The position numbers were made by a program, and so were the translations under genes. Positions 35,552-54,567 of a stretch of 64,000 nt of DNA are shown here, piece after piece; within the stretch, counting starts at the first letter, position 1; every line of letters starts with the position of its first letter. The DNA is from an uncultured Planctomycetaceae bacterium (GTDB lineage: Bacteria > Planctomycetota > Planctomycetia > Planctomycetales > Planctomycetaceae). Where the stretch lies: the NCBI GenBank assembly GCA_963815195.1, contig CAWFGE010000004.1, positions 32,001 to 96,000 on the forward strand. The letters run 5' to 3'. The notes under the pieces are model-generated. The model was given only the letters and a program-made list of their open reading frames with translations. It made no database searches and was not told where the DNA came from.

Positions 35552-35957
35552 GTGTCTCTCCCACTTGATTCAAAACTCGTGAACAGCTTGGGAGATGGCG
35601 CACTCAGCGTTTGAGAGGGGCCATCGTTGTGGTTGGTTTCGGTATGTTCGTCGTTGGCTGGTTTGGGTTGGTGTGGTTGGCGGAGAAATCAGGCGAGTTC
35701 CCATCTTGGAAGATAAGACAGCTTCTCCACTTTCAACATATCAATATCCGTTGGAATGTCAACGTTCCAATCCCGTTTCCTGGAAAACTCTCTTTTCAAC
35801 AATTGACGGTTTGGACCGGCCGGTTATCCGGTTTTTGCCGAAACCTCCAAAATTTCCCTGGGATTGGCCCCGGCCGCCCTGGGACCTACAATAAATCCCA
35901 GTCCAAGCGCAAAAGATTTCTTCGCGTTGACAACTCAATGGAGCAGTATCCACAACC

Positions 35958-37204
35958 ATGACCGATCACTCGCATACCGTGGAGGAAGCTCTCGCCGCCC
36001 TCAAAGAAGGCCGGCTGGTGATCGTCGTCGACGCCGAGGAACGCGAAAACGAAGGCGACTTCATCTGTGCGGCCGAGACGATCACCGCCGAGACGGTCGA
36101 TTTCATGCTCCGCTGGGGCCGGGGCGTGGTCTGCGTGCCCATGACCAAAGACACCGCCGACCGCTTGAACCTCCATCCCATCGTCCAGGACACCTTAAAC
36201 ACCTCCGCCCACGGCACCCCGTTTCTCGTGCCGATCGACCACAAAGACAGCGGCACCGGCGTCAGCCCCCACAACCGGGCCCTCACAATTCGCAAGCTGA
36301 GCGACCCCAAAACCGCTCGCCGGGGAATTCCAGCGGCCCGGGCACGTCAATCCGCTGTTGGCGAAAGAAGGCGGCGTCCTCCGCCGGGCCGGCCATACCG
36401 AAGCCACCGTCGATCTTCTGCAAATGGCCGGCATGCGGCCGGTCGGGGCGCTCATCGAAATCTGCAGCCAGACCACGCTCGACATGGCGAGCTACGATGA
36501 ACTCCGCCAAATCTCCCGGGAGCACGACATCCCGATCATCACGATCGAGGAACTCATTCGGCATCGCCGGGTCCGCGAACGCCTCGTGCACCGCGAAGCC
36601 GACGTCGTCATCCCCACCACCAACTTCGGCAACCCCCGGCTCATCGGCTACCGCGTCGAGCACGAAAACCAGGAACCGCTTGGCGATGGTCTGGGGCGAT
36701 CTCAAAGCCGCCGACAAACCGCCCCTGGTCCGCATGCACTCCTCGTGCTTCACAGGGGATTTGATGGATTCCCTCCGCTGCGACTGCGGAGACCAGCTCC
36801 ACATGGCGATGGAAATGATCCACCGCGAAGGCCAAGGCGTCGTGGTCTATCTGCCCCAAGAGGGCCGGGGCATCGGATTGCTCGCGAAGCTCAAAGCCTA
36901 CGAGCTCCAGGACACAGGCAGCGACACGGTGGAAGCCAACGAGCAACTGGGCTTCAAAGCCGACCACCGGGACTACATGGTCGGCCTGCAAATCCTCAAA
37001 GACCTGGGCCTCTCCGAAATCCGCCTGCTCACGAACAACCCGAAAAAGACGGACGCCTTCACGCTCTCCGGCATGGATCTCAGGGTCGTCGAGCAAGTCC
37101 CGATCATCGCCCCCCCGCACAAACACCGCGAACGCTACCTCGCCACCAAACGCGACAAACTAGGACACCTCCTCCCCGCCGGCAACCAGGACGCGGCCGA
37201 TTGA
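35958..37204 (+). CDS. ribBA: Bifunctional DHBP synthase / GTP cyclohydrolase II, frameshifted near 36315 and 36680
   Basis: DAEERENEGD, RAGHTEA, RMHSSCFTGD..SLRCDCG, QEGRGIGL, LLTNNPKK and YLATKRDKLGHLL. Confidence 0.93.
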
Positions 37205-37298
37205 GCGAAGAATGGAGAGCCGGTTCCGCCCGCCTTTTGGTTTGAGAACGCCATCCACCCTAACATCGCTGGCCGGCACAGCCGGCCCTACGCCACTC
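37108..37298 (+). repeat. 191-bp direct repeat, copy 1 (ribBA 3' end plus downstream GTAG-type REP)
   Basis: Reads identical to 41008-41198, offset exactly 3900 bp. Confidence 0.92.
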
Positions 37299-45525: not shown

Positions 45526-48500
45526 TCAGGCGGCCCCGCCGGCCGATTCGTCGGTTTTCAAGCTGGGGTGAAAATGCCGAATGCGGGTGACGGCCACCAG
45601 GCACGCCGCCTGCTCGCTGGGGCCGTGGGAGGCTTGAAACTCCTCGAGCAGCGGCAACAGAAATCCCGCGAACTCGCCGTCCTCGACCGCGGCGTCGCGG
45701 AGCGTTTCCACGAGCGCCAACTTCGCCTTGCGGTGGGGCAGCGGCTTTAAGCGGGTTTGGATCGTGCCCGCTTCCTCGCGGCGGGCTTCCGGACGGCCGG
45801 GCGGAAGCTCGAACAGCATCCGCCTTAAAAACCGCCTGAGCGCATCCGCCTCGGCGGGCAGGTTCTCCGGCTTCGGCGGAGCCCCCGTGCCCACGCTGTC
45901 TTCGGGAGATTTCGCCTCTTTTTTGCGTTTGCTCTTGAGCTGCGATTCGGGCAGCGGCGCGGGTTTCCAGTCCGACGTGATGCCCCGCGCGCGGTACAGC
46001 GACCAGAAGCTCTGAATCACGAACGCCCGCACCCGGCGGTCGGGGCTTTCGGTCAGGCGGAACAGTTCCGCCGGCAATTTCAATCGCGGATGCCGTTCGA
46101 TCAAGTCCATCCCCAACGCCCGCGTGCCCTCGTCCCGCGATTCGCAAAAGCTGTAAACCGCATCGGCCGTGAGCACCCTTGGATCAATCCGATACCGGCG
46201 GTGCTCGGTGGTGTCCTCCGCGGTCATCGCCTTCGCCACGAACTGCCGGACTTCCCCGTAAGGCGATTCGCACATCTCGATCAAACCTTCGATCGGCGGC
46301 GCCCAGCGGGCAAACTCATAACCGGCGATCTCAAGCGCAAACTCCCTGAGCGGCAATCGGCGTTCGAAAAACAACGGCTGCATGCGGTCGAAGGTGAGAA
46401 ACTCCGCGGGAATCTCCGCACCCGGATCGACCGGCCGGTCCGTCTCCGCAAGACAAATCTCGGGATGATGCCGGCGAAAATACTTCAGGGCAAACTGCCG
46501 GAGCGGCGCGTCCGCTTTGCCCTCGCTGGTGAGCATCTCCCACAGGCGTTCGCAGCCGGCGGTCACGGCATCGGCGGAGAACTCCCGCTCTTCGCCCGCG
46601 AGCCTTTGCAAGAATGCCGTCTCCGAAATGATCTTCAGCTCGGCCCCTTCCTCCATCAGCGACTCGGCTTTGACCTGCTTGCTGCCTTTTCGCCCCTGGC
46701 CATAAAGCGGGCTGCCCTCGTCGCCGATGACGAGGTAATTCAAGTTTTTGTTGACGGCCGAGGCCACCTTGCCGCCGGCTTCGCGGACTTTCTTCTGGGC
46801 TTCGCCGCGGCTCATCGTGGCGAGCTTGCCCGTGAACAGAAACGAATCCCCGCCCAGATCGACCGCGGGTTTCTTGGGCTCGGCTTTTTTCTTTTTGGAT
46901 TTTGCGGCGGGCTCGGGTTCCGGAGCCGCGTCTTTCGGAGCAAAATCCGCCGGCAAGAAGGCGCGGATCATCGTCTCCACCGCAAAGTCGTGATACCGCG
47001 GCTCGCTCCGCTGGACCAGTTCCATCAGCCATTCAAACCCCAACTGCCCCGGCGAAAACCGCCGCGGGTCGCTCAGCCAATGCAGAATCTCCGCCGAGAG
47101 TTGCTCATCGAAGTTCACGCCCCAATTCTTGACCGACGGGTAGTCCGACTTTTTCAGTTCTGCAATTTCGGGAGCGGCTTCGAAGGCGGGATGGTACGCC
47201 AATATTTTCAACCATTGGACGCCGACGGTTTCCGCTTTCAGCTTCCCTTCATCAATCCAGTTGGTGATGGACGCCGCCGCATGATTGTTGAGCATGGACC
47301 GCTTTAAGAAATCGGGAGCGAGTTCGTTCGCATCGAATTTTTGCAGTTCGCCCATCGCGAAGAGAATCAGGTTCCGAACCTGCCAATACGAAATGCGATC
47401 CGTGTCCACCCAATCGACAAGGTCCATGAAAAAATCGGGGCCGAGCTTTTTGGTGGGATGCACGTCCGGCAGGAGTTTTTGCGCGAACGCTTGCGCGGAT
47501 TCGTTTTCGCCCAACAGCCGTTCGCGGAACCACTCCGGGGTGAGTTCCTTCGCGCCGAAATGTTTGCGGATCATGTCCTGGGCCAGGTCGCCGCCGTGCT
47601 CGGTTTCGAGGAGCCGCCCCCAGGCGTCCAGGCCCACGTCTTTTCGCGGATCGCGGGCTTTGACGAGATCGAGCGCCAGCTTGTGGACGTGGGAGTTCGG
47701 ATTGTCGGCGAGGCGGATCAAATCCTCGATCGGCAAATCGCGGGCGTGGGTGCGGGCATAGTCGGCGGCATAGGCGCACGCCGAGTCGCTGGAAGAATCG
47801 AACAGCCGCAACACCGCGTCGTGCAAGCCCAGTTCGCGAAACGCCGCCTGCTCGAACTTGGGAACGTTCTTCAGGATCCATACGACGAACTCATCCACGA
47901 CGCCGCTGCCCGCGCTGACCAATCGCGCGACCCAATCCGGCTCGACTTCCCGCAGCGTCGCGCGGAAGTCGGTCTTCAAACCCTCCACGGCGAACTCGCG
48001 GATGTCGTCGGACTTGGCCCGCTCCAAAAGTGAAAACAACGGCCGGGGCGTTCGCTGCCAAAGCTCGCCGAACGCCCGCTGCTTGATGAGCGACTTGGGA
48101 CGCGAGCGGTAGCGAAACCGGCGGGCGGTGTAGCTGCCCGTCTCGTGAAACAGGATGTGGTTCAAAACCCAACACCGGGGCCAATACCCGCTGTGGAAAT
48201 CCTGCGGATAGTGCGCGAGGAAATCGACGCAGTGATCGGCATAGACCGCCGGCAGCGTTTGACCGGTCCGCCTCAAGAACCGCCACGCCCGCCGGACCAG
48301 ATAGCCCAACGTCATTTTGCTGACCGCGGGCGATCCCCAGCCCGCAAACGCCATGTCGAACCGGGCCGCGAGCGCCCCGTAGATTTCCAGATCGCCCCGG
48401 GCCTCGGCTTCCTTGAAAATCCGCTTGAGCGCCTTCCAAGGCCCGTAAGTCAAAGGCACCTTCGCGATAATCCGCAGCAAACACGAGCGGGCAAAGACGC

Positions 48501-48810
48501 CGTTGTCTTCCCAGAGCACGCTGAGGATTTCGTGCAGCCGAAGCTTGTCCGGAAGCGGCACCTCCGCCTCGGGCGACTCAAGGGCCTTGAGCGTTTCCAC
48601 GCGGTAATGGGCCTGCTCTTCCCGCGGCTTCTTGCGGAACGCGGGCGACGTGATCTCCCGCACGAATTTCTCGAACGTCAGCGCCCCCTCGCGCACGGGC
48701 GCTTCCGCTTCGGGCGGCGGCGCGGACGCGAGCCGCTCGACATAAGCGACGAGTTCCGGGTCGCTCGTTTCCCAAGCCCGCCGAATGTCATCCAATGCGA
48801 GTTGCGCCAT
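45526..48810 (-). CDS. Large helical-repeat (ARM/HEAT-like) protein with an internal BRCT domain; candidate retron-associated protein
   Basis: BRCT: FLFTGKLATMSRGEAQKKVREAGGKVASAVNKNLNYLVIG...KGSK..KA...IISE; the rest is amphipathic-helical. Confidence 0.8.
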   Translation of the reverse strand: MAQLALDDIRRAWETSDPELVAYVERLASAPPPEAEAPVREGALTFEKFVREITSPAFRKKPREEQAHYRVETLKALESPEAEVPLPDKLRLHEILSVLWEDNGVFARSCLLRIIAKVPLTYGPWKALKRIFKEAEARGDLEIYGALAARFDMAFAGWGSPAVSKMTLGYLVRRAWRFLRRTGQTLPAVYADHCVDFLAHYPQDFHSGYWPRCWVLNHILFHETGSYTARRFRYRSRPKSLIKQRAFGELWQRTPRPLFSLLERAKSDDIREFAVEGLKTDFRATLREVEPDWVARLVSAGSGVVDEFVVWILKNVPKFEQAAFRELGLHDAVLRLFDSSSDSACAYAADYARTHARDLPIEDLIRLADNPNSHVHKLALDLVKARDPRKDVGLDAWGRLLETEHGGDLAQDMIRKHFGAKELTPEWFRERLLGENESAQAFAQKLLPDVHPTKKLGPDFFMDLVDWVDTDRISYWQVRNLILFAMGELQKFDANELAPDFLKRSMLNNHAAASITNWIDEGKLKAETVGVQWLKILAYHPAFEAAPEIAELKKSDYPSVKNWGVNFDEQLSAEILHWLSDPRRFSPGQLGFEWLMELVQRSEPRYHDFAVETMIRAFLPADFAPKDAAPEPEPAAKSKKKKAEPKKPAVDLGGDSFLFTGKLATMSRGEAQKKVREAGGKVASAVNKNLNYLVIGDEGSPLYGQGRKGSKQVKAESLMEEGAELKIISETAFLQRLAGEEREFSADAVTAGCERLWEMLTSEGKADAPLRQFALKYFRRHHPEICLAETDRPVDPGAEIPAEFLTFDRMQPLFFERRLPLREFALEIAGYEFARWAPPIEGLIEMCESPYGEVRQFVAKAMTAEDTTEHRRYRIDPRVLTADAVYSFCESRDEGTRALGMDLIERHPRLKLPAELFRLTESPDRRVRAFVIQSFWSLYRARGITSDWKPAPLPESQLKSKRKKEAKSPEDSVGTGAPPKPENLPAEADALRRFLRRMLFELPPGRPEARREEAGTIQTRLKPLPHRKAKLALVETLRDAAVEDGEFAGFLLPLLEEFQASHGPSEQAACLVAVTRIRHFHPSLKTDESAGGAA

Positions 48811-48892
48811 GAGAGATGCTCTCTAACAGAAACAGTCTCGATGTCCGACATTAGCCCCCTGCGGCTAATGAATGAGAGAAAAAGGTAAAAAA

Positions 48893-48963
48893 GAATGACC
48901 GAGCACCAATTCCGATTGTTGCCGAGCGCGGGCACGTTCTGGGTCATTGTGTGTCGGTCATTC
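48893..48963. other. Stem-loop between the ncRNA and the BRCT gene
   Basis: gaatgaccga (48893-48902) pairs with tcggtcattc (48954-48963). Confidence 0.55.
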
Positions 48964-48964
48964 C

Positions 48965-49218
48965 TGTTCCTGAGAGCCGTCTACTTCTAGACCTGGGACA
49001 TGGAAGGCTCACTGACCCGCCGTCCCGGTAGTGCAATTACCTGCAGCGGAACCACGATGGGCGGGGTTGATCCAGACCGCTGCGAGGTAATTGCACTACC
49101 GGGACGATCAGCGGGTCTGAAACAGCCTTCCTTGTGAAGAGTGACAGGCAAAACGCTAGAACGGCGCAACGCCGCTCGCGGTGCAAGGCACCAAGCTAGA
49201 CCTGGACTCTCGGAAACA
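48965..49218 (-). ncRNA. Retron msr-msd non-coding RNA, Mx162-like
   Basis: a2/a1 imperfect inverted repeats (49197-49218 / 48965-48983); candidate branch G at 49196; msr hairpins at 49180-49192 and 49159-49177; msd hairpin 49002-49131 with a perfect 22-bp core. Confidence 0.8.
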
Positions 49219-49265
49219 ACACCTGTCTATCAAACTTGAGGGGCAAACGCAAGCATATGGCGATC

Positions 49266-49332
49266 CGCTTACTTTGTGCGCGGCTCTCCGCAGGTTTCGC
49301 GGCCGGTTAAAGAGCCACGCACGCAGTAAGCG
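49266..49332. repeat. Inverted repeat downstream of DUF58 (REP-like or terminator)
   Basis: ccgcttactttgtgcgcggctct pairs with agagccacgcacgcagtaagcgg. Confidence 0.6.
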
Positions 49333-49344
49333 GGAATCTCCTCC

Positions 49345-50682
49345 TCACAACAGGTTCTGTTGGCGGAGTTCGATGAACTGGTTGATAAGGGGGAGCGTCA
49401 GATGTTGGGGGAGCGTGTCGATCACGTGGATGCCGCCGTGCTTGAGGGCGTAGATCGCCCGGCCGCGGTCCCGCAGCAGCCCGAGCGCCACCGCCTGGTC
49501 CGCTCCCTCTTCGATGGACTCAGGCTCGGCATAGACGACCTGCCTTAACAGCGGCGTTTGCAGGGCCGCGAACAGCACCAGGTGCTGGCGATTGAGCCGG
49601 GCGAGGGCCGCACAGTGCGTCCGCGATGTTTCCGCATCGCCCAGGTCGGAGAGAATCACAAGCAGGCAGCGTTTGGATTGGCGGTGCTTGAGCTCGGCGA
49701 AGAGTTGCGTGAAGTCGGTCTCCCGCCATTCGGTTTGCAGGTCGTAAACACACTCCACGAGCCGCCCGAGTGATTTGGGGCCGGCGATCGGGGCGAGATA
49801 CCCGCGGAGCGTGCTGTCGAACACGCCGACGCCGCAGCGGTCCCCGCTGTGAAGTGCGACCCGCGCCAGATTGAGGGCGGCGTCGATTGCGCAATCCAAC
49901 TTCGACCCGCGATCGGTGAGCGCCTCCATCAACCGCCCCGAGTCCACGAGAATCAACACGTCCCGGTGCCGCTCCACTTGATACCGCCGGACGATCGGCG
50001 TGCGCTGCCGGGCGGTGGCCCGCCAATCGATCCGCCGGGGGTCGTCGCCTTGCCGATAGGGAAACAGCGAGACGAACTCCGTCCCCGCGCCGACTTGCCG
50101 CGAACGGGAGACTTTGTCCAACAACAGCAAATTCGCCCCCACATCTTTTTGCAGCTCGTCGCGGGACGCGAACGTTTCCGGGAGTACGCGGATTTCGCCC
50201 CGGCAATCGGTTTCCTTCTGGACTTCCGCGAGATCCCAAGGCCCGCGGACGCGAACCCACACCGGCCCGAAGCGGTGTTCGCCGCGCACGGGGATTCGGC
50301 ATTCGGTGGTCATCGATGTGGCCGCATCCTCGGGCGAATCCGCTGCGGCGAGTTCAAACGGATGAATCGACCATTGGGGCACACAGTCCGCGGGGAAAAC
50401 GTCCCGCAGTTCTCCGCGGATCGGTTTCGAGCCGGCGTTCATGATCGCGAGTCTGGACTCGAATGGCAGATTCCGCCCGACCAGGCCGGGCAGCGTTCGC
50501 GAGACAGAGCATTCCTGGACCAGAGCTTTCGCGGCCCGGCTGTCTCGCCAGAACGCGAAACCCAATAAGATGAGCGCCGCCCCCAAGACCCATAAAACCT
50601 CCACCCAGAGAAACGCACCGAATCCGAACGCCGTCAGCACGCCTGCGAGTTCCATCAGGCGGGGGCCGGGCCGCGTTTTCAC
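49345..50682 (-). CDS. DUF58 domain protein
   Basis: GTEFVSLFPYRQGDDPRRIDWRATAR and LVDSGRLM (vWA-like). Confidence 0.9.
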   Translation of the reverse strand: MKTRPGPRLMELAGVLTAFGFGAFLWVEVLWVLGAALILLGFAFWRDSRAAKALVQECSVSRTLPGLVGRNLPFESRLAIMNAGSKPIRGELRDVFPADCVPQWSIHPFELAAADSPEDAATSMTTECRIPVRGEHRFGPVWVRVRGPWDLAEVQKETDCRGEIRVLPETFASRDELQKDVGANLLLLDKVSRSRQVGAGTEFVSLFPYRQGDDPRRIDWRATARQRTPIVRRYQVERHRDVLILVDSGRLMEALTDRGSKLDCAIDAALNLARVALHSGDRCGVGVFDSTLRGYLAPIAGPKSLGRLVECVYDLQTEWRETDFTQLFAELKHRQSKRCLLVILSDLGDAETSRTHCAALARLNRQHLVLFAALQTPLLRQVVYAEPESIEEGADQAVALGLLRDRGRAIYALKHGGIHVIDTLPQHLTLPLINQFIELRQQNLL

Positions 50683-51626
50683 CGGGGCACCTCGACGATT
50701 TCGAGGATTTGGGCCAGCACCTCGTCGGCCGCGGTGCCTTCGAGTTCGACGCTGGGGCTTAGGATCACGCGATGCCGAAGCGCCGGCAGAAACGCTTCCT
50801 TGATGTCGTCCGGGTTCACATAATCCCGGCCGCTGAAGCGGGCGAGGCTTTTCGCCCCCATCAACAGCATCAATCCCGCCCGCGGGCTGCCGCCGACTTC
50901 GAGGGCATCATCGTCGCGCGTCGCCTGGATCAACCGCTGGACATACCCGAGCACTTCGTCCCGCACGAACGTCTCGCGAATCAACTGCCGGCTGGCGATC
51001 AGATCGTCCGGCGTCATCACCTTTTGCAACAGCAGTCTCTCCGGCGACGACAACCCCGACGTGGCGTGATGGGCCGCCAGCACCCGCACCTCGTCCTGGG
51101 GGTTCGGATAAGAGACCAGCACCTTGAACATGAACCGGTCCAACTGGGCGAGGGGCAGCGGATAGGTGCCTTCCTGCTCGATTGGGTTTTGCGTGGCGAA
51201 CGTGATGAACGGCTCGGGCAGCCGATGCGTGATGCCGTCGTACGTGACCTGGAGTTCCTGCATGGCTTCCAGAAGGGCCGACTGCGTGCGGGCGGAGGCG
51301 CGGTTGATTTCATCGGCGAGCAGGAAGTTCGTGAACACGGGCCCTTGGCGGAACTCGAAAGTCCGCGTGTCCTCGCGATAGATCGACGAGCCGGTGACGT
51401 CGTTGGGCAACAGATCGGGCGTCATCTGGATGCGGTTGTGCGCGAGGTCGAGCACCGCCGCGATCGAGCGGACGAGCAGGGTCTTCGCCACGCCGGGCGG
51501 CCCTTCCAGGAGCACGTGCCCGCAGCTAAACAGGGCCGCAAGCGAGTAGTCGATCACCTCGTCCTGGCCGAAGATCACTTTGGAAAGTTCGCCGCGAATG
51601 GCTTGGATACGTTCTTCTAAAGACAA
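50679..51626 (-). CDS. moxR: MoxR family AAA+ ATPase
   Basis: HVLLEGPPGVAKT, RIQMTPDLLP, LADEINRA and ATQNPIEQEGTYPLP..QLDRF. Confidence 0.93.
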   Translation of the reverse strand: MSLEERIQAIRGELSKVIFGQDEVIDYSLAALFSCGHVLLEGPPGVAKTLLVRSIAAVLDLAHNRIQMTPDLLPNDVTGSSIYREDTRTFEFRQGPVFTNFLLADEINRASARTQSALLEAMQELQVTYDGITHRLPEPFITFATQNPIEQEGTYPLPLAQLDRFMFKVLVSYPNPQDEVRVLAAHHATSGLSSPERLLLQKVMTPDDLIASRQLIRETFVRDEVLGYVQRLIQATRDDDALEVGGSPRAGLMLLMGAKSLARFSGRDYVNPDDIKEAFLPALRHRVILSPSVELEGTAADEVLAQILEIVEVPR

Positions 51627-52930
51627 GCTGCCAACCTCCGCATCGCATCGAGTGTCTGGGCTTCCGTCAATCGGCCGGGCCATTCGGCCAGGCGATCGGC
51701 CTCGGCAACCGCCTCGCGAAGTTGCCGGGCGCGGGCCGGGTTCCTGCGTTCGATCAGATTCGCGACCAGATCGACGTCTTGAGTTTCGGGAGGTAGAGCA
51801 TACCCGGTGTTGAGTTCCCGCAACACCCCCGCGCGGATTTGCCGGATAAGAAACGCCCGCGCCTTTGCCCCTTTCGCAAACAGCCGCCCCATCGCAGAGA
51901 TGTATTCGCCGATGTCCCGGCGGGAATGCGGCTCGTCCGGCAGCGGCGGGCCGAGCAGCGACGCTTTTCGCCAGGAGTCCAGGCCGATCCACAATAACAG
52001 CCCCAGCGCGATCGCCGCGTACCCGGGCAGCGTGAGCAAAAAAAACGGATTCCCCCGCACGCCCAGGCCGTGGTAAAACTCGTCGAACACGACCGGCTCG
52101 CCCCGCGGCGAAAGCAGGTACGCCGCCGCGACGCTGTTGTCCTGTTGCGGCAGGAGGCGGTTGCGAAACAGCCCCTCATCGACGACCAGGATCGCGCCTT
52201 TCCCGCGCGGGAACTCCGCGGCGACGATGCGTTCTTCGCCGTCTTCGGTGAAATAGGAAATCTGTCCCGCCGGTTCGGTCTTCTCCCACACCAGCGTTTG
52301 CTCGGCATCGCCGGGCAAGGCCAGTTCGCTGACGTCCTTTTGCCAATCGGCCAATGTTCCCGTGCAGTCCACAACCACCACCCGCGGCGGGACGAGTTCG
52401 CGGTTGAGTTCCTTCAGGAAGGATTTGGAAAAGTCGTCTTCTTCGTCATGCTCCTGCTGGAGTTTTTGAAATTCCGCCTCGTGGTTCGCCCGTTCAAACT
52501 TCACGCCCTTGAGTCCCAGCGTTTCCAAGATCGTGGGCAGTTCCGTGGGCGACTGGGACAATTGGCTCAGCTTCAAATCGAGCGGAGTGGCCGCGCGCAC
52601 GGCGACAACAAGCCGGCCCCCACCTTCGACCCAGGGCAGAAGATTCTTGAGGTAGCGCGGCTCCACCCCGGCGATCTGCGGGTCGGGATTCAAAAAGGCG
52701 ATCGTCCGGTTTTCCGGCGCGGGATGCGGCGGGCGGAGTTGGCGGTCCACCTCGACGCCGAGTTCGCCGAGCGTTTCAAAAATCGCCCGATAGCCGGCCT
52801 CGCGTGTCCCGTAGGTGTCGCGGCCCATCCCGCCGGAATCCGGCGTCTGGAACAGGCTCAACCAAACCGCGATCAGGCACAGCACCGCAATCAACACCGC
52901 GATCTGGATCAGGCTACGCACGGAGGGCAT
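51617..52930 (-). CDS. DUF4350 domain protein
   Basis: N-terminal TM, WVEGGGRLVV and VVFDEFYHG; moxR operon context. Confidence 0.75.
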   Translation of the reverse strand: MPSVRSLIQIAVLIAVLCLIAVWLSLFQTPDSGGMGRDTYGTREAGYRAIFETLGELGVEVDRQLRPPHPAPENRTIAFLNPDPQIAGVEPRYLKNLLPWVEGGGRLVVAVRAATPLDLKLSQLSQSPTELPTILETLGLKGVKFERANHEAEFQKLQQEHDEEDDFSKSFLKELNRELVPPRVVVVDCTGTLADWQKDVSELALPGDAEQTLVWEKTEPAGQISYFTEDGEERIVAAEFPRGKGAILVVDEGLFRNRLLPQQDNSVAAAYLLSPRGEPVVFDEFYHGLGVRGNPFFLLTLPGYAAIALGLLLWIGLDSWRKASLLGPPLPDEPHSRRDIGEYISAMGRLFAKGAKARAFLIRQIRAGVLRELNTGYALPPETQDVDLVANLIERRNPARARQLREAVAEADRLAEWPGRLTEAQTLDAMRRLAACL

Positions 52931-53585
52931 GCCGGCTCCTTTCCGCAATGCCGCGAATGCGGGTGTGCTCGTCCCGGCAGCTGAGAAAGTCCTCTTCCCG
53001 GCACACATCGTGCCCGTACCACTTCGCATCGATGACGGCCACGAACCGGGCGAGCGGCTCAAAAAGCGGCGTCGCGCGATACCGGCGGAGCAATTCACGA
53101 TTCGTGATGCCTTTGCGAATTGGCCGCTCCTGGGCGCGCTCGATCCGCAAAATCGCCGCTGCGAACAAATACCGCACCGCCGCGATATAATCCCCCCGCG
53201 CGGAGGCCTCCTCCGCCGCCTGCTCGAGGTCGGCGGGCATGGCGGGCAATTCGCGCTGTTGCTTCGGCGAACGCCGCAGCGGCACTCCGCGGAATGCCCG
53301 GACGAACGTGAGGATAATATGCGAGATCAGCACCACAACCAACACCGTCAGCGCAATGACAATCACCCACCGCAGACCGTCCGGCAGTCCGTCGAGCAAG
53401 TGAAAAAACGCGGCAATTTTTTCCAAAAACCACAAGAAGAGCCGGGTCAACAGGCCCAGCGATTCGGAGTGTTGCGGGTTTTCCAATTCGTAATCCGGCC
53501 GCGCAAGCACCTCTTTCGCTTTCTCGCGGATCTGCTCCGGCGAAGCGATCGCCGCCAGGATGATGCAGTTGAAACCGCCGTTCAT
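52914..53585 (-). CDS. DUF4129 domain protein
   Basis: GDYIAAVRYLF...TNRE...WYG motif; moxR operon context. Confidence 0.75.
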   Translation of the reverse strand: MNGGFNCIILAAIASPEQIREKAKEVLARPDYELENPQHSESLGLLTRLFLWFLEKIAAFFHLLDGLPDGLRWVIVIALTVLVVVLISHIILTFVRAFRGVPLRRSPKQQRELPAMPADLEQAAEEASARGDYIAAVRYLFAAAILRIERAQERPIRKGITNRELLRRYRATPLFEPLARFVAVIDAKWYGHDVCREEDFLSCRDEHTRIRGIAERSRHALRA

Positions 53586-53631
53586 GCGACCATCCGCCCC
53601 CAAACTTGGCTTTTCAGATTCTGCCGGACGA

Positions 53632-54453
53632 TCATTCGCCTTCCACGTCGTCAAAAAAGACCGGCTCATCGTGCGGCGGGGCGGATTCGCCGACGGCTTG
53701 CGCCAAAAGTTCCAGGTCGAAATTCTCCACGCCGGACCGGCAGGAGAAATAGAACACCACAAACACCGCGGTGGAAATCAACGTCACCACGGACTGCAGC
53801 AAAGCCTGAACAACGATTTGGGCATGAATCTGCGGAATCAGTCCCGCGCCGCCTTGGATCATGCCTGAGATCACAGCGATCAGGATCCCCAACACCAGAA
53901 ATTGTCCCCAATAGGGCTTCATCAATAACTTGCTGCGGCTTAACGCGTCCGATCCACTTTTGTCCTCGATCACGACGACGTACTGATAGAGTCCAAACAA
54001 AACGGCGAAAATGATTCCCGGGATAATACACAACAGCGTGCCCCCAAAGACCGCCAGCGAGTACAGAATCGTGGTTCCCAACAAGGGGAGGAATTTGGAG
54101 AACCCCTTGCGGAGGGATGCGCCCACGGTCACTTGCTTGCCGAGATACCGCTCCGCCACGGCATAAGTCACCGCGGCATTGGTGATCGGCAAGATCACGT
54201 AACCCCCAAACAAGGCAAAGCCGAGAAGGACGGGCATGGTGCTCGTCAAATACTCGAGTTGCTCGGCGGGGGTCGAATCGGGCGTGGGCGGGGGAACGGA
54301 GGAAACCATCAAAGGCGCGAAGCCGGCCAGCAGTTGAAACGGAATCCAGAGGCAGGCCAAGATTCCCAACAACAGGCCGAAGTTGTCCCTAATGACGGCG
54401 ATGCCTTGATCCAGGCATTCCCCCAAACTCAGTTCCCGAATCTCATATTTCAT
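53632..54453 (-). CDS. Integral membrane protein of the MoxR-associated type
   Basis: RELSLGECLD N-terminus, LCIIPGII and ALSRS..L; about 6 TM segments. Confidence 0.75.
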   Translation of the reverse strand: MKYEIRELSLGECLDQGIAVIRDNFGLLLGILACLWIPFQLLAGFAPLMVSSVPPPTPDSTPAEQLEYLTSTMPVLLGFALFGGYVILPITNAAVTYAVAERYLGKQVTVGASLRKGFSKFLPLLGTTILYSLAVFGGTLLCIIPGIIFAVLFGLYQYVVVIEDKSGSDALSRSKLLMKPYWGQFLVLGILIAVISGMIQGGAGLIPQIHAQIVVQALLQSVVTLISTAVFVVFYFSCRSGVENFDLELLAQAVGESAPPHDEPVFFDDVEGE

Positions 54454-54567
54454 GACAGCCCCCTCTTCATGGTGGATCGAACGGTGCGTCCCGGTGAACA
54501 AGTCACCTAGGTTACAACCTGACCGCCCGGTTCGCCAGCAAGTTTTTGGGAAACTGTCGCCGCTTCG

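Follow-up and report, generated by a model that had tools for sequence, protein, structure and literature searches.

The 64,000-nt stretch of DNA analyzed here (hereafter the window; positions 32001-96000 of contig C4 in G000, the source genome, from an uncultured Planctomycetaceae bacterium) carries a retron non-coding RNA (ncRNA) of msr-msd architecture ahead of a gene for a 1094-aa HEAT-repeat protein with a BRCT insert. We propose, with a probability of about 0.6, that the two belong, as RNA and first gene, to a type XIII retron of five parts, that the three remaining genes, encoding a reverse transcriptase (RT), a SWIM-WGR protein and a WD40/HEAT protein, are located elsewhere in this genome, at separate loci, and that the system still works in trans. 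Every type XIII criterion tested holds here save the contiguity of RNA and RT in one cassette, and the separation of RNA from RT is a trait of the lineage. An earlier, sequence-only reading of this stretch had described an intact msr-msd before a 1094-aa BRCT gene with no RT in the window, on which the open reading frame, the RNA fold and an RT profile search of all 64 kb (no match) agree; its label RT-less falls, since other contigs of this genome encode the matching RT, a SWIM protein and the second HEAT protein.

The region 48964-49219, read on the minus strand, folds with −139.5 kcal/mol (z −10.5), a value that none of 200 shuffled sequences attained, and 35 of the 71 predicted pairs show two-sided changes in a 9-sequence alignment of homologs, which bears out the suggestion that the RNA is under selection. 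A covariance model built from 16 RNA copies (R1) gave a single match in the source genome, at 220 bits, the window copy being itself part of the training set, and an Rfam scan of the window RNA returned no family at the gathering score, only chance matches to microRNA hairpins. Its assignment to type XIII, already made in the sequence-only reading, rests on the a1/a2 arms, the branch G, the msd hairpin and the cognate RT_XIII; the branch context TAGC is the commonest among retrons (PMC6868368; this and the other papers cited here by identifier were available in part). The two msr stem-loops are likely the RT recognition site, by analogy with other retrons. A perfect 22-bp inverted repeat (49021-49042/49085-49106) forms the core of the variable stem in the msd, which folds as DNA with z −11.2, and the predicted multicopy single-stranded DNA (msDNA) would be ~155-160 nt long and run on the plus strand from ~48985, its ends being deduced.

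The HEAT/BRCT protein matches the PADLOC model HEAT-ARM_XIII (PDLC02921) across its full length with 1200 bits, and thus belongs to the system, as had been surmised. The BRCT domain passes the Pfam cut-off at aa 656-703, has its best solved-structure matches in the BRCT domains of RFC1 and LigA, and keeps T660, G661, R668 and K711 at a conservation of at least 90% across 120 homologs; BRCT domains of the RFC1/NAD-ligase class bind DNA ends. An AlphaFold model (mean pLDDT 88) shows an alpha-solenoid into which the BRCT domain is inserted, and a fold search with it returned generic HEAT solenoids only, with TM scores of at most 0.20. Among 8000 candidates scored, 611 were homologs of the protein, and a survey of such neighbourhoods, proposed in the sequence-only reading, found them to co-occur with RT and RNA.

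That reading had also expected the RT and a SWIM partner to be encoded elsewhere, and a genome search located both on contig C23. Six RVT_1 matches were found in the source genome, three of them retron-type (on C23, C13 and C20), while the other three look like group II intron RTs. The C23 RT frame holds all three retron motifs (NAxxH, YADD and VTG), with a single frameshift upstream of these, and its N-terminal piece also scores best as RT_XIII. In a tree it clusters with four operon RTs at a support of 97/100 (row L067, translated in the wrong frame, is disregarded; that RT is represented by L106 in the 14-row analysis of branches and columns described below). No RNA match was found in its surroundings. 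The C13 RT was rejected as partner because it has its own, shorter RNA just upstream, and the C20 RT because it scores best as RT_other. The latter, at L012:8438-9868, is a stand-alone retron-type RT that PADLOC places as RT_other/outgroup. The WGR-like domain at the C-terminus of the SWIM protein scores below the Pfam cut-off. A tRNA-Met gene lies ~230 bp downstream of the C23 RT (L011:8173-8247).

Table 1 Coordinates of the retron RNA, its parts and the retron genes; positions are those of the window unless a contig of the source genome is named.
Feature	Position	Strand	Description	Basis
Retron ncRNA (msr-msd), type XIII	48965..49218	-	254 nt; sole full copy in G000	Fold and covariation
a1 arm	49197..49218	-	Abuts the TAGC branch-point G at 49196; both arms vary jointly in homologs	Sequence
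Two msr stem-loops (together 49159..49192)	49180-49192 and 49159-49177	-		Fold and covariation
msd hairpin	48998..49135	-	Outer stem conserved, ~26-bp stem variable, apical loop conserved	
Opposing G (48984) and a2 arm	48965..48984	-	212 nt from the branch G, equal to Nannocystis copy 1	
Hairpin followed by U-rich tract, between RNA and HEAT/BRCT gene	48880..48968	-	Possible terminator or attenuator	z −3.7
1094-aa HEAT-repeat protein with BRCT insert	45526..48810	-	First gene of the type XIII operon	
BRCT domain, RFC1/NAD-ligase class	46600..46848	-	aa ~655-737	
Cognate RT	G000 C23:234474-235783			Best model RT_XIII, E 4.5e-145
SWIM-WGR gene	G000 C23:245055-246911		CxCx12CxH motif present	SWIM_XIII, E 1.9e-193
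2100-aa WD40/HEAT gene	G000 C8:535693-542061		In three pieces	PADLOC PDLC02919

In related genomes the parts usually stand in one operon, in the order RNA, HEAT/BRCT gene, gene for a 2100-2250-aa WD40/HEAT protein, SWIM-WGR gene and RT, with the RNA ~12 kb upstream of the RT. The RNA leading a BRCT gene, which the sequence-only reading took for the oddity, is therefore the normal planctomycete layout; what is odd here is that the downstream three genes have moved away. The HEAT/BRCT gene is carried by 54 of 401 genomes of the class and by 2 of 398 of the family. Of the 53 other carriers in the class, 44 have the RT on the contig of the HEAT/BRCT gene at a distance of 9-13 kb, one has a truncated RT, and eight have it on another contig; six of these eight were fetched and prove to be contig breaks, a seventh (G267, not fetched) ends at a contig edge by its coordinates, and the last, G286, is genuinely split, at the gene boundary where the source genome is split too, so that 2 of the 54 class carriers are split. 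Some intact operons are headed by two or three tandem RNAs (L045:4865-5624, L053:6570-7793, L122 and L125), the stems of which mostly differ and are identical in L045. In G175 (L122:14858-16071), an rsmH/mraW-like gene stands between SWIM and an RT with only 85 matching residues, a possible case of decay or rearrangement.

The scattered layout could be produced by assembly or binning, the operon being contiguous in the cell or its parts coming from different organisms, a doubt to which an assembly with 94.6% completeness, 2.8% contamination and many indel errors, and with no junction-spanning reads demonstrated, lends some substance. No retron part, however, comes closer than 42 kb to the end of its contig, the flanks on C4 and C8 match DNA of the same genus at 79-94%, no copy of an insertion sequence (IS) was seen at the C4 junction, and the parts are single-copy and mutually cognate, all of which makes an artefact very improbable. 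Short contigs of X1 and X2, from sequencing runs, align to parts of the region with an identity of at least 99%.

If the separation is real, the parts could still be the relics of an operon that rearrangement and IS activity disrupted not long ago, with decay yet to set in. The genome is IS-rich and its gene order differs even from that of same-genus genomes; SWIM and RT are 9.5 kb apart on C23, with IS and other DNA between them, including a 700-bp duplication, 95% identical, of the SWIM 3′ end together with the end of a leucine-rich repeat gene (L101:7040-9240); the RT truncation in G175 looks real, and splitting of this kind is as rare as stated above. The four retron genes, however, have the second, fifth, sixth and second shortest of 14 terminal branches in their respective trees, and with 14 rows per tree they keep 201/204, 204/209, 125/127 and 126/128 otherwise invariant columns (98%); their codon use is host-like. 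Their ~12.8 kb hold three frameshifts, one in the RT and two in the WD40/HEAT gene, and 28 conserved control genes (18,270 bp, rplB, rplC, rplE, secY and rpoA among them) hold six, all in ribosomal-operon genes, a rate at which ~4 would be expected by error in 12.8 kb. Short branches, kept columns and frameshifts at the error level together exclude long decay, although not a recent scattering. Despite two breaks and an insertion, the RNA and all four genes are whole, and the junctions that were read show no remnants. At the corresponding site of G001, otherwise 85% identical, window positions 45527-54550 are missing. A second type XIII system of the source genome is itself split, as HEAT-SWIM (C12:1097002-1100454, L014) and RNA-RT (C13:1180378-1182300, L013). 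This system is contiguous as HEAT-SWIM-RNA-RT in three outside genomes, while SWIM stands apart from RNA-RT in all four genomes of the source genus, each of which retains both RT and SWIM at ~70-88% identity (in G001, no HEAT gene was seen next to SWIM); separation with both parts kept in 4/4 genomes supports a tolerance of splitting, and we consider the relic explanation improbable.

The RNA also travels apart from its RT in relatives, and none of the genomes searched showed it without one. The covariance model matched 40 of 48 chosen genomes, comprising all 40 carriers and none of eight non-carriers, and among 150 evenly drawn genomes of the class the RNA was present in 21, every one a carrier; because related genomes are not independent, neither these counts nor those below amount to a statistical test. 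In one planctomycete genus (g26), all eight genomes tested (G149, contig C1, with G094, G056, G217, G126, G064, G102 and G367; loci L140-L174) combine a single RT ortholog with dispersed full-length RNA copies that number between at least 7 and at least 36. In three further genomes the count is at least 6-8; all these numbers are lower bounds, as 50 candidates were scored in each genome. The 41 relatives of Nannocystis punicea comprise 15 genomes with the RNA, 16 with the RT and 25 with neither, and all 15 RNA genomes have the RT. There the RNA adjoins the RT in three genomes, with more distant RTs (51-53%), lies 3-9 Mb off on the same contig in four, and is on a different contig in eight, where contig breaks are possible; at eight myxobacterial operon loci with ~8 kb upstream, the RNA was found in none. 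Nannocystis exedens DSM 71 carries two tandem copies 5.6 Mb from the RT operon (L187, L192 and L194; operon beside L055), as well as a separate ~85-nt piece that matches copy 1 in its 3′ half with a single mismatch and ends 2 nt short of the opposing G, which we read as the start of an inserted msDNA and hence as a trace of past reverse transcription in trans.

These distributions bear on the idea, raised in the sequence-only reading, that the RNA works without an RT; it might then be a cis-regulatory leader or small RNA for the HEAT/BRCT gene. Its end lies 154 nt upstream of the ATG of that gene, with an attenuator-like hairpin between, which a promoter and terminator scan of the window, itself without any calls, did not report. 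Yet homologs conserve the branch G, the opposing G and the a1/a2 arms, the HEAT/BRCT gene is not next to any Nannocystis copy or to most copies of the multi-copy genus, and no RNA without an RT was found in the genomes searched, leaving the idea unsupported and extremely improbable.

The copies share a fixed scaffold in which the 26-bp stem varies, with a median identity of 35%, and remains paired (copies fetched: 20 of 36 in G149, 9 of 26 in G094, 8 of 14 in G056 and 4 of 7 in G403). A promoter-like motif precedes 8 of 34 copies, against 0.6% in shuffles; a count of downstream hairpins (31 of 34), for which there is no shuffle control, is given no weight here. Of 60 distinct stem arms, 52 were extracted in register and eight dropped, including that of the window; in these 52 the longest internal dyad has a mean length of 5.04 bp, whereas dinucleotide shuffles give 4.15 bp (z 6.5), and a dyad of at least 5 bp occurs in 37 of 52 arms, compared with 14.7% of flank 26-mers. 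Among 36 copies in three genomes, 17 pairs have common flanks, of which 16 have unrelated stems (at most 58% identity) and one has retained its stem (96%), while one identical stem was found at two unrelated loci. Differing stems on common flanks and one stem at two loci suggest that stems are replaced as blocks, for which recombination with msDNA is a candidate route. Neither source considered for the stems gave a clear match: two 20-nt stems of the 60, examined as possible phage spacers, had no exact match in viral contigs, and as host operators the window stem had no second match in the source genome and a shared stem had three two-mismatch matches outside RNAs in nine genomes, against two control matches.

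Taking these observations together, we propose the following mechanism. The RNA would be transcribed, and the RT would then, with a good degree of confidence, recognize the msr stem-loops and prime at G49196 to yield a branched msDNA of ~160 nt. In other retrons the RT recognizes the msr via region Y and primes from the branch G (PMC6868368), which would make linkage of RNA and RT unnecessary; an RT that reads the RNA scaffold only would leave the location of the template free and allow it to be multiplied. The msDNA and the RT may be joined in a single complex with the SWIM-WGR protein and both HEAT proteins, the latter as scaffolds. Provided that msDNA is made, the chances seem about even that its palindrome-rich variable stem acts, by analogy with Dam sensing in Retron-Sen2, as a double-stranded decoy for sequence-specific DNA-acting proteins such as phage methyltransferases, nucleases and regulators, and that triggering frees the SWIM effector, a role based on its description as a putative nuclease by Mestre et al. 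2020 (PMC7736814). We tentatively extend this, at rather less than even odds, to a template uncoupled from its enzyme: one RT-HEAT-SWIM machine would serve a genome-wide RNA library of up to at least 36 members, whose palindrome-rich 26-bp stems are exchanged as cassettes to form a renewable decoy panel, an array-like sensor repertoire against DNA-binding or DNA-modifying proteins of invaders, with the window as the minimal split case.

The same parts could instead serve a housekeeping role in trans, the msDNA acting with BRCT, WGR and SWIM to sense DNA ends or titrate host regulators rather than to detect phage proteins. The RFC1/ligase class of the BRCT domain, the WGR-like end of the SWIM protein (with the low score given above) and the host-like codons would suit such a role, as would the stable separation across Nannocystis and the report that type XIII follows the 16S phylogeny, which suggested domestication (PMC7736814). 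The patchy distribution of the system, at the family and class frequencies given above, resembles that of defence systems, and neither stem tested recurs as a host site, so that we regard a housekeeping role as unlikely.

Several observations weigh against a working trans retron with a sensor library. The assembly has interrupted reading frames for the RT and the WD40/HEAT protein, the sequence ahead of the window RNA gave no sigma-70 promoter call, and among the contigs listed from sequencing runs none was shown to bridge the junctions, with no RNA holder among the runs listed. Three same-genus genomes (85-94% complete) lack every part of this system and so offer no means of dating the split; genes scattered only recently would look intact too. 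The window stem has a dyad of only 4 bp, not significant alone (p 0.47), the Nannocystis stems are conserved across four species, so that turnover is not universal, and vertical inheritance and host-like codons suit a cellular role equally well.

Close to the RNA, a REP-like hairpin at 49265-49333 lies outside it and recurs at ~70 genomic loci, one of them just upstream of the C23 SWIM gene. The adjoining MoxR/DUF58/DUF4350/DUF4129 operon (49345-54501) is missing, together with the RNA and the HEAT/BRCT gene, from the syntenic site of G001. Farther off, a ribBA-like gene at 35864-37245 is split over several frames, probably by assembly indels as in the ribosomal genes.

The window alone is a modest case, and the interest lies in the lineage-wide trans arrangement and the stem library. 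Both the definition of retrons and the search for them assume a contiguous cassette. Should the present system work in trans, the 'orphan' RTs and RT-less RNAs of current surveys may turn out to be parts of complete retrons, which defence annotation based on neighbourhoods would then undercount. The analysis further offers a candidate RT, in a cultured strain, for Retron-Nex1, whose RT is unnamed in the 2019 review as far as its available text goes. A naturally occurring RT able to use dozens of templates whose stems are freely exchangeable, if confirmed as such, would be a ready multiplex retron for the production of single-stranded DNA, and the stem library is a direct handle on what type XIII senses.

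Type XIII retrons, as described by Mestre et al. 2020 (PMC7736814), have RTs of clade 10 and include Mx162, Mx65, Ne144 and Sa163; some of their loci have two HEAT genes preceding the SWIM gene, and a DEDE motif is described for the SWIM protein. The present system resembles them in its msr-msd architecture and in its matches to the RT_XIII, SWIM_XIII and both HEAT-ARM_XIII models. It departs from the contiguous cassette by which the type is defined: intact operons have ~12 kb between RNA and RT, the two are on different contigs here, and relatives carry the RNA in multiple dispersed copies. Published RNA searches covered the vicinity of the RT, or 10 kb on either side (PMC13712802, in the part available), ranges that tend to miss such remote RNAs. 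In the literature searched, which left subscription journals largely outside, we found no report of a split operon, of a distant RT for Ne160 or of a dispersed library, nor any work on the function of type XIII. Some of the RNAs may already be listed in the 1997 paper or among the supplementary data of PMC7736814. The files of PMC10849725 that were available held no match for Singulisphaera, Gemmata, Nannocystis or Planctomyces.

An msr-msd without a neighbouring RT has been known since 1997 from one precedent, Retron-Nex1 (Ne160) of Nannocystis exedens, for which Lampson and Rice 1997 are cited with a duplicated msr-msd, no RT within 1 kb and a suspected distant RT (review PMC6868368). N. exedens DSM 71 has duplicated copies of the present RNA family and no RT within 1 kb, in contrast to the single RNA of the window, and from organism and layout these copies are candidates for Ne160; in its available text the review mentions neither an RT or operon nor variable stems. 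A precedent for the decoy proposal is Retron-Sen2, in which msDNA senses DNA-acting phage proteins, Dam methylation and nucleases being named as what it detects (10.1101/2020.06.22.160242 and 10.64898/2026.10.13.758329, each available in part). Retron-Sen2 differs in having one fixed msDNA, one small toxin and one locus, with an unrelated effector; the likeness lies in the use of an msDNA hairpin as a reporter for a DNA enzyme with sequence specificity.

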